Assembly: GCA_041667145.1 (NCBI GenBank)
Contig: JBAYFP010000005.1
Span: 1-44,485 of the forward strand
Direction of reading: 5' to 3'
Source of the DNA: Minisyncoccota bacterium
GTDB lineage: Bacteria; Patescibacteriota; Minisyncoccia; Phycocordibacterales; UBA9973
DNA: 44,485 bases
Shown here: one piece after another, positions 15,310-15,808 of the stretch
How positions within the stretch are numbered: the stretch's first letter is position 1
Layout: each line of letters begins with the position of its first letter
Notes under the pieces: model-generated
The model's database searches: none
Told to the model about the DNA's origin: nothing
The model's input: the letters and a program-made list of their open reading frames with translations, nothing else
Position numbers and translations under genes: made by a program

Positions 15310-15338
15310 ATAAAAAGGGTGCCTCATAGAGAGACACC
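15310..15338 (-). terminator. intrinsic terminator of the small foreign-codon gene
   Basis: Minus-strand RNA would fold as GGUGUCUC-ucuau-GAGGCACC (8 bp including one G-U) followed by CUUUUUAU. Confidence 0.6.
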
Positions 15339-15411
15339 ACTTTTTTTAAAAAAAATAACAAATAAACAAATACATGTGCAACCTTGGATGCGCCGACGTC
15401 AGCCGGCGTTG

Positions 15412-15561
15412 TTATCCGTTAATTACCATGTATTGGAAGCCTGCACTTTGATCGTAGGTGACGACATCGTTGCTGGCAGAATTCGTGATGACGGTGTTGC
15501 GGCGGCGGCGATCGGTTTTGGCCATGGTATTATTGCGCGAGTAGCTGGTTCGATTTTTCAT
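15412..15561 (-). CDS. 49-aa basic small protein with foreign (C-ending) codon usage
   Basis: MKNRTSYSRNNTMAKTDRRRRNTVITNSASNDVVTYDQSAGFQYMVING. Third codon positions are overwhelmingly C (CGC x5, ACC x5, GTC x3, AAC x3, TAC x3, AGC x2, GCC x2), unlike the A/T-ending host genes. It has its own candidate promoter, a ~110-nt leader and a terminator. I recognise no homology. Confidence 0.5.
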   Translation of the reverse strand: MKNRTSYSRNNTMAKTDRRRRNTVITNSASNDVVTYDQSAGFQYMVING

Positions 15562-15678
15562 ATATGTATCACCCTTTCGGAAAATAAATGTATTTGACAC
15601 TGTGAGTAAAAACAACGACGGACGCTCAAAGAGAGCAATCCTTAAAAAAATCAATGAACGAAGTTGAATCCATCTACA

Positions 15679-15707
15679 ATTATATTCCCAAACCTTCTAA
15701 GTATAAA
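15679..15707 (-). promoter_or_regulatory. candidate promoter of the small foreign-codon gene
   Basis: Minus strand reads TTTATA-N17-TATAAT. A perfect DnaA-box 9-mer (TTATCCACA on the minus strand, plus-strand coordinates 15715-15723) lies 7 nt upstream of the -35. Confidence 0.4.
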
Positions 15708-15738
15708 TAGCACCTGTGGATAACTCACATAAACGGCT

Positions 15739-15791
15739 ACAGACGTTGGACGTCTGGGAATGTGGATAACTCCCAGACGTCCAACGTCTGT
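15739..15791. repeat. 53-bp GC-rich palindrome (21-bp arms) with a DnaA-box 9-mer in its loop
   Basis: ACAGACGTTGGACGTCTGGGA-atgtggataac-TCCCAGACGTCCAACGTCTGT. The loop contains TGTGGATAA (15761-15769). The arm core is identical to the rnj palindrome at 7330-7350. Confidence 0.9.
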
Positions 15792-15808
15792 AAATATTAA
15801 ATTAAATC

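Follow-up and report, generated by a model that had tools for sequence, protein, structure and literature searches.

The stretch of DNA considered here (contig JBAYFP010000005.1; 44 kb at 33.7% GC, hereafter the window) is Candidatus Nomurabacteria/Paceibacterota DNA, from within the candidate phyla radiation (CPR), and it carries a lineage-specific insertion between the gene for an 84-aa membrane protein and the gene for a 205-aa protein. ENA has this contig too, as k141_111989 of assembly ERZ27249449. Two short GC-rich hairpin units, each accompanied by a perfect DnaA-box 9-mer, lie at one end of this insertion, and the remaining ~400 bp hold a GC-rich island with a 49-codon open reading frame (ORF) on the minus strand. 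Comparison of these sequences with those of other genomes leads us to conclude, with high confidence, that the 'DnaA boxes' are the conserved tag of a family of repetitive extragenic palindromic (REP) units served by a transposase resembling the REP-associated tyrosine transposases (RAYTs). The composite reading of the locus, in which two such REP units stand beside an orphan segment of ~400 bp, is probable.

The insertion and its two REP units

The homologues of the two neighbouring genes lie 17-63 bp apart in four relatives (loci L004, L046, L049 and L079), as against 513 bp in the window, and the proposal of an earlier, sequence-only reading of this DNA that the segment might be an insertion is thereby borne out. 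No DNA or translated likeness to the insert was found in 113 related loci apart from its REP part, and similarity to other genomes is confined to positions 15699-15801. The 205-aa gene has hundreds of relatives in metagenome-assembled genomes (MAGs) of Nomurabacteria/Paceibacterota, with identities up to 82-84%; among nearer relatives that might carry the insert, the best homologue of this gene is only 84% identical and those contigs are without it. In relatives the slot 5' of the 205-aa gene is a hotspot of turnover, and it may hold a gene for DNA-alkylation repair, one for an HTH_5 regulator or other small genes.

Perfect copies of the 9-mer, TTATCCACA, occur in the window at 15715-15723 and 15761-15769 on the minus strand and at 12212-12220 on the plus strand, against 0.47 expected (three were reached in 1 of 100 shuffles), and both local boxes are embedded in the 12-mer GAGTTATCCACA. 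When one mismatch is allowed there is no enrichment (17 boxes against 15.2 expected). The sequence-only reading had listed these same three boxes and the shared 12-mer, had put the chance expectation at about one or fewer, and had placed one box in the loop of a GC-rich palindrome; all of this stands, the palindrome having arms of 22 nt (15738-15759 and 15771-15792) that are 100% complementary and an 11-nt gap that contains the box. Its view of boxes and palindrome as sites particular to the small gene beside them has to be given up, and they are to be read instead as REP units, members of a repeat family dispersed through the genome and linked with a RAYT-like transposase.

Each palindrome arm is itself a 7-bp hairpin, and because the two hairpins differ solely in their 3-nt loops (TGG in one, CCA in the other) they read together as a 22-nt inverted repeat. 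They are thus mutually inverted in their loops, yet both tags face the same way. The arms recur at 7327-7371, and the pattern CAGACGT-N3-ACGTCTG is present in five copies at two loci of the window where 0.03 would be expected. A covariance model (R1), built from 25 units of other genomes and none from the window, matches REP unit 1 over its full length (44.7 bits, E 4e-10) and REP unit 2 likewise (32.6 bits, E 6.6e-7), the latter with an 11-nt insertion in the spacer; locus L091 shares this architecture. The same model also matches the tag-less hairpins at 7329-7372, and reaches the third box at 12212 with only 10.4 bits, via the tag alone.

A weaker hairpin (7301-7315) lies beside the tag-less doublet in the RNase J ORF, and this region translates as ...RAPDVGRLGTRRPTSGE.... 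A degenerate REP at the 3' end of the small ORF (hairpin 15383-15410 plus ATCCAAGG) was considered and rejected, as it has no R1 match.

Table 1. Features of the insertion and of related sites in the window.
Feature	Position	Strand	Remarks
Second REP doublet, no tag	7327..7371	.	In frame, in N-terminal extension of RNase J ORF (7239-9188)
205-aa gene	14678-15295	-	
Lineage-specific insertion, 513 bp	15296..15808	.	Between stop of 84-aa membrane-protein gene and start of 205-aa gene
TAGAAT -10 box	15302..15307	-	6 nt 5' of ATG of 205-aa gene
Intrinsic-terminator-like hairpin	15310..15338	-	8-bp stem with 5 GC pairs; A-run before, T-run after
Antisense 92-codon ORF	15319..15597	+	Same RNY (purine-any base-pyrimidine) register; called by one gene caller
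Long imperfect hairpin	15367..15432	-	Predicted fold; takes in last 7 codons, stop codon and stem CGCCGGC/GUCGGCG; no R1 match
49-codon orphan ORF	15412..15561	-	MKNRTSYSRNNTMAKTDRRRRNTVITNSASNDVVTYDQSAGFQYMVING
Putative leader, ~110 nt	15562..15672	-	Shine-Dalgarno (SD)-like GGGTGAT at 15568-15574, 6 nt 5' of ATG
Promoter-like TTTATA-N17-TATAAT	15679..15707	-	10/12 consensus positions; starts 7 nt after tag of REP unit 2; predicted function
REP unit 2	15713..15758	-	Hairpin CAGACGT-CCA-ACGTCTG, 16-nt spacer, tag TTATCCACA (15715-15723)
'53-bp palindrome'	15738..15792	.	Two REP hairpins seen as 22-nt inverted repeat
REP unit 1	15759..15794	-	Hairpin CAGACGT-TGG-ACGTCTG, GGGAG, tag TTATCCACA (15761-15769)
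84-aa membrane-protein gene	15809-16063	-	

A repeat family of Paceibacterota and its RAYT-like transposase

When 185,579 species, each represented by one genome, were scanned for the doublet AGACGTTGGACGTCT-N(0-30)-AGACGTCCAACGTCT, 29 stretches in nine MAGs were returned; one of these MAGs has 11 loci, and all nine are titled Paceibacterota, Nomurabacteria, Patescibacteria or uncultured bacterium. The spacers of 33 doublets measure 4-19 nt, and 12 of these doublets carry TGTGGATAA with at most one mismatch just outside the hairpin, where ~0.5 would be expected; in these 12 the motif always faces outward, with no case of the wrong orientation, and mostly stands at a spacing of 6 nt. Since the box occupies the tag position at a mostly fixed distance from the hairpin, it travels with the hairpin. 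The layout of the unit is a GC-rich hairpin topped by GT-(TGG/CCA)-AC, followed 4-16 nt to its 3' side by the tag TT(A/T)TCCACA. Stems vary by genome (CAGACGT, TCGGACGT, GTCGGGTGT, GTAGGTGT, TCAGGGGT and others), with the GT-loop-AC top and the tag held constant, and the variation is of the compensatory kind: both partners have changed in 7 of the 10 stem pairs, compensatory cells number 30 against 8.9 in shuffles (none of 500 shuffles reached that count), and 90% of cells are paired against 32-47% in slid controls.

The doublets are found in very short intergenic gaps or in frame within real genes, and about one third of those sampled are in frame within housekeeping genes, among them guaA (L082 and L101), gatB (L086), purH (L096), a Mur ligase gene (L102 and L105) and an ABC transporter gene (L084); the guaA and Mur ligase doublets occupy similar positions in two genomes each. 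No GC islands were seen to accompany REP copies in other genomes. The units are short, non-autonomous repeats of Paceibacterota/Nomurabacteria. In the closest species-level relative of the window (L001:4055-4090) there is a REP unit with a different stem, GGAGTAGGT-CCG-ACCTCCTCC plus TTATCCACAGG, which overlaps the stop codon of the DNA-alkylation repair gene and ends 14 nt before the start of the 205-aa homologue, in the same slot as the units of the window.

A 243-aa ORF adjoining one of the doublets (L108:3078-3809) has Y1_Tnp as its sole Pfam match and REP_Tyr_transpos as its sole NCBIfam match, and 139 relatives of its product occur in Paceibacterota genomes. All 15 aligned members match both families (best E 1.2e-9 for Y1_Tnp and 4.1e-7 for REP_Tyr_transpos) and no other, and the 15-member alignment keeps NPNHFH (the HUH motif) and GGY..YFN without variation. 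The proteins of this Y1 (HUH) transposase family (L114-L193; for example L114:1501-2229) are ~215-245 aa long and widespread in Paceibacterota, and several genomes have two diverged copies. In several of the 80 loci that were fetched (L114, L115, L116, L124, L125, L128, L129 and L137 are examples) the gene is flanked on both sides by the hairpin, (G)GAG and TT(A/T)TCCACA, in the same orientation. The transposase gene of L116 itself contains an in-frame REP.

By analogy with REP/RAYT systems and the IS200/IS605 insertion sequences (IS), the transposase would bind the hairpin on single-stranded DNA and would cut at or near the conserved tag (PMC3337134, PMC5581495, PMC6006769). Several observations weigh against the REP/RAYT assignment. 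The L108 protein falls below the curated cutoffs, with 27.7 against 80 bits for REP_Tyr_transpos and 22.8 against 23 for Y1_Tnp; solved RAYT or IS200 structures are unmatched by a sequence profile of the RAYT-like proteins; the gene was not found in the 44-kb window, where tblastn detected no remnant either; and the tag has 9-10 nt and lies 3' of the hairpin, as compared with the classical 5' GTAG/CGTC tetranucleotides. A search of a literature library for REP/RAYT in CPR/Patescibacteria found no prior description, and the family is accordingly presented as a REP/RAYT variant in a lineage for which no earlier account was found there.

The relaxed DnaA consensus is TT(A/T)TNCACA, and between genomes the tag varies within TT(A/T)TCCACA, as that consensus would permit, save for a ATATCCACA variant in a few loci that falls outside it. 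One reading, an unlikely one, is that the REP tag functions as a DnaA box, in which case RAYT-mobilised repeats would have scattered dozens of consensus DnaA sites, each next to an extrudable hairpin, through these very small CPR genomes. Were this so, the sites might couple REP/RAYT activity to the initiation of replication, in the way that DnaA does at Tn5 ends, and the scattered tags could jointly form a datA-like sink tuning free DnaA. It is very unlikely that the boxes are functional DnaA sites of an origin, or a DnaA-titrating or regulatory locus specific to this position: two perfect consensus 9-mers do lie within 55 bp where 0.47 are expected per window, and the variants elsewhere, TTATCCACA and TTTTCCACA, are within the relaxed consensus, but one-mismatch boxes show no enrichment, the whole segment is absent from relatives, and the boxes are the tag of a REP unit found at many unrelated places, coding sequences included. 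Cumulative GC skew is monotonic across the locus, and because it runs straight through without an inflection the locus is not an origin. A tblastn search of the window with DnaA motifs, a weak test, gave no match.

The orphan segment and its small open reading frame

The ~400 bp at 15296-15712, between the REP pair and the -10 box of the 205-aa gene, are orphan DNA unique to this genome. The insert has no match in phages or plasmids, and none of its exact 25-mers occurs in the metagenome and genome collections searched. A decayed neighbouring gene was rejected as its source, in that tblastx against the 113 loci gave nothing, and no larger degraded gene of which it might be a fragment was detected. 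A 6-bp direct repeat, TTCTAA (15303-15308 and 15695-15700), was likewise rejected as a target-site duplication, being too short and AT-rich.

The description of this segment in the sequence-only reading was in large part accurate. The ORF encodes exactly the 49-aa peptide that was quoted; the segment is GC-rich, with 100-bp windows of 0.49-0.56 over 15400-15549 against 0.337 for the whole window; and GC at third codon positions (GC3) is 0.63 in the ORF against 0.25 +/- 0.05 in host ORFs, a value that 1030 host windows of 49 codons never reach (GC1/2/3 in host genes: 0.44/0.33/0.24). Third positions had been described as almost all C, and C is indeed found at 26 of 49, but the bias is present only in four-fold boxes (C16 G2 A4 T1), with two-fold Y codons at 10 C to 9 T and all four Lys/Gln codons ending in A. 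A bias so limited is not one that a donor-wide GC bias would produce. The C periodicity is significant (p ~5e-5, 20,000 shuffles) and confined to ~15430-15553, and this 3-base periodicity suggests that the segment, a singleton insertion, is probably of coding origin. In synonymous usage neither reading resembles a host gene, with scores of -0.39 for the minus and -0.09 for the plus reading, against a host mean of +0.19 +/- 0.09.

The further step, from periodic C at third positions to a coding minus strand imported from a donor of higher GC, is not warranted. The periodicity is of the RNY type, which is strand-symmetric and fits both strands equally: G stands at the first position of 53% of plus-strand codons, and each of the 26 C-ending minus codons becomes, on the plus strand, a codon of the form GNN (for Gly, Ala, Val, Asp or Glu). 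An antisense ORF of the host (33835-33972) has C at 0.51 of its third positions (C3) and a GC3 of 0.64; antisense ORFs reach the same C3, and the high GC3 of the small ORF is no outlier against spurious antisense ORFs of host genes. In annotation, an outlying GC3 or C3 is not enough on its own to mark a short ORF as imported, since GNN-rich coding DNA gives the same picture when read on its antisense strand. Taken together, expression signals favour the minus-strand 49-aa ORF whereas codon statistics favour the plus strand.

One account of the island, a doubtful one, is that of the sequence-only reading, in which the 49-aa ORF is a real translated small-protein gene from a higher-GC donor with its own promoter, SD and terminator. 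In its favour are the ATG with GGGTGAT 6 nt to its 5' side, the near-exact coincidence of the periodic region with the ORF, the terminators 3' of the stop codon, the nature of the segment as an insertion, and the AlphaFold2 result, in which the minus frame attains a pLDDT (predicted local distance difference test score) of 71.8 against 45.3 for the plus frame. The value of 71.8 belongs to the best single-sequence model, with four beta-strands; the other four models are at ~50, and Foldseek of the 49-aa model against the PDB gave no match at E < 1. The peptide has no Leu, Glu or Pro, which speaks against this account. So do the restriction of the C bias to four-fold boxes (C against G 16 to 2, p 0.0013, with Lys/Gln all A-ending), the host antisense ORFs that reach the same C3, and the host codon model, which prefers the antisense by a log-likelihood difference of -12.8 where true genes score +28.6 +/- 8.2 and never below 0. 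The SD-like motif carries little weight because host genes are without SD (none of 34 in the window has such a motif). Gene calling leaves the ORF aside as well, one caller having taken the plus-strand ORF and the other having called nothing.

As the sequence-only reading had anticipated, no homologue of the 49-aa peptide was recognised in the protein, genome, viral or metagenome collections searched. There was none in a word-index protein search and no match in Pfam, PHROGs or NCBIfam; phmmer against 1.84 billion cluster representatives returned as its sole match a spurious low-complexity repeat protein; and nothing came from back-translated scans of genome, viral and metagenome contigs, from tblastn against phages, or from exact look-ups of the 49-aa and 80-aa versions. 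That the peptide is translated is possible but doubtful. The orphan ORF is a candidate lineage-specific small protein. Two other roles were tried and rejected. The ORF is too long for a leader-peptide attenuator of the 205-aa gene, which moreover has a -10 box to itself. As for a template repeat of a diversity-generating retroelement, the window offers no second copy, and a Pfam look-up of the neighbouring genes gave no reverse transcriptase.

It is rather unlikely that the plus strand is or once was coding. On this view the GC island would be a piece of a gene rich in Gly/Ala/Val/Asp (...IVGDDIVAGRIRDDGVAAAAIGFGHGIIARVAGS...) that has died or been orphaned, with the minus ORF as its antisense shadow. 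With G at the first position in 53% of codons and T at the third in 47%, the plus frame has a host-like third position; the host codon model ranks its register best (-207.0 against -219.9), its synonymous-codon score is the nearer to that of the host, one gene caller chose it, and RNY-periodic coding DNA typically leaves long frames open on the two strands in one register. Yet the plus ORF is without start-codon context, promoter or terminator of its own, and its GTG start lies inside the minus-strand terminator. Its peptide, which is without Lys, has no match in word-index search, HMM libraries, tblastn against plasmids, the PDB or tblastx against the 113 loci; only 0.2% of host 49-codon windows have so much G at the first position (at least 0.53); and the plus-frame pLDDT of 45.3 is low beside that of the minus frame.

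Less likely again is a non-coding RNA, either a small RNA or a cis-regulatory leader, within which the ORFs would be incidental. Other intergenic GC islands in this AT-rich genome are RNAs (tRNAs, rRNA and a cobalamin riboswitch), and the island is flanked by a promoter-like site and terminators. On the other side, no Rfam family matches it even at E up to 10, so that the check for a known structured RNA was negative; the stability of its fold is no better than that of shuffles (z +0.83 and +0.30 on the two strands, against -2.52 for the riboswitch as control); strong 3-base periodicity is unexpected in a structured RNA; and the island is not conserved in any relative. The remaining probability belongs to non-functional DNA.

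The sequence-only reading had further described a complete unit of promoter, ~110-nt leader, ORF, hairpin and terminator, and these signals are present, although the promoter match proves no better than chance: promoter-like matches in the window are not enriched over shuffles (4 against 6.4 expected), a point that tells against transcription from this site. In the predicted fold the GC stem CGCCGGC/GUCGGCG follows directly after the stop codon, and a U-rich tract (15345-15366) follows the long imperfect hairpin. In the working model the minus strand would be transcribed from the TATAAT box into an RNA of ~350 nt ending at tandem terminators, and such an RNA, ending there, would leave the 205-aa gene on its own promoter. 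That this gene has a promoter of its own, with the -10 box listed in Table 1, is suggested by the presence of TATAAT, GATAAT or TAGAAT in the short junction of relatives, just 5' of the start codon of the 205-aa homologue, and its mRNA is probably leaderless. With its -10 box retained, the gene need not be affected by the insert. A TAnAAT box stands 6-8 nt 5' of the ATG at many of the 34 gene starts of the window, and leaderless mRNAs are suggested to be the rule in the host organism.

Relation to known systems and other features of the window

The REP and REPIN (paired, inverted REP) systems with RAYTs of E. coli and Pseudomonas (PMC3116915, PMC3337134, PMC5581495, PMC3733652) share much with the family described here. 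In both, short GC-rich hairpin units with a conserved unpaired tag are present in many copies per genome, with frequent inverted doublets (REPIN-like), and lie mostly in the short intergenic spaces 3' of genes, though some copies are within genes; in both, stems differ between genomes with the structure kept, and a Y1/HUH transposase gene, of which each genome has one copy or two diverged ones, is flanked by the same hairpins. The differences lie in the tag, here the 9-10-nt TT(A/T)TCCACA 3' of the hairpin rather than a 5' GTAG/CGTC; in the host, a CPR/Patescibacteria lineage with a very small genome; in the transposase, which is below the curated RAYT cutoff; and in the share of sampled doublets, about one third, that are in frame inside housekeeping genes.

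This last habit recalls the Rickettsia palindromic elements (RPEs), which are also palindromic mobile repeats inserted in frame in unrelated housekeeping genes of a reduced genome (PMC10969869). An RPE measures ~100-150 bp and codes for a conserved peptide, and no transposase dedicated to RPEs is known, whereas the present units measure 35-70 bp and go with a RAYT-like gene. The ends of IS200/IS605 elements (IS608, ISDra2; PMC6006769) are similar in having a Y1 HUH transposase, subterminal hairpins in the same orientation on one strand, and short conserved sequences beside the foot of the hairpin; unlike those elements, no autonomous multi-copy IS was seen among the loci considered here, and the gene resembles a domesticated RAYT in one or two diverged copies per genome. 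A passage in PMC3347997, citing Yin and Reznikoff (1987), has the ends of IS50/Tn5 carrying a DnaA-binding 9-mer. In Tn5 a DDE transposase acts on double-stranded ends and DnaA binding has been shown by experiment, whereas for the repeats described here the identity with the consensus is one of sequence.

Clusters of DnaA boxes on the chromosome, as at oriC, datA and DARS, consist of perfect consensus 9-mers close together, and in this respect the locus resembles them. It differs in having no skew switch and no linkage to dnaA, in not being conserved, and in that its boxes belong to a dispersed repeat. REP/RAYT systems are known mainly from Proteobacteria, and the present family extends their range to the ultra-small, densely coding genomes of the CPR, where essential enzymes tolerate in-frame copies and where the tag is identical to a DnaA box. 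That identity raises a possible link to replication. It also has a practical consequence for annotation, in that perfect DnaA boxes in these genomes are not to be read as origin or regulatory sites before the repeat family has been masked.

A few other features of the window deserve mention. Directly 5' of two small genes (16100-16306 and 16479-16700) a segment of ~82 nt is duplicated with 2 mismatches, at ~16304-16385 and ~16698-16779 on the minus strand; it carries a 12-nt inverted repeat, CCCGTTAGAAAT...ATTTCTAACGGG, ending at the start codon, and may be either a further small repeat or an element with a cis-regulatory role. In the 5' part of the 16S rRNA gene (window positions 1-366, minus strand) an early helix has an insertion of ~38 nt, with 38 nt where the bacterial model has 3. 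The third perfect box, at 12212-12220, is without a REP hairpin, and a promoter, TTGACA (12228-12233)-N16-TAAAAT (12250-12255), begins 7 nt past it. The divergent cobalamin riboswitch noted above, at 12242-12425 on the plus strand (27.9 bits against an Rfam gathering threshold of 31.5, E 1.9e-5, fold z -2.52), lies 5' of a DUF4430 gene and of a 554-aa gene with faint cobalamin-binding matches.

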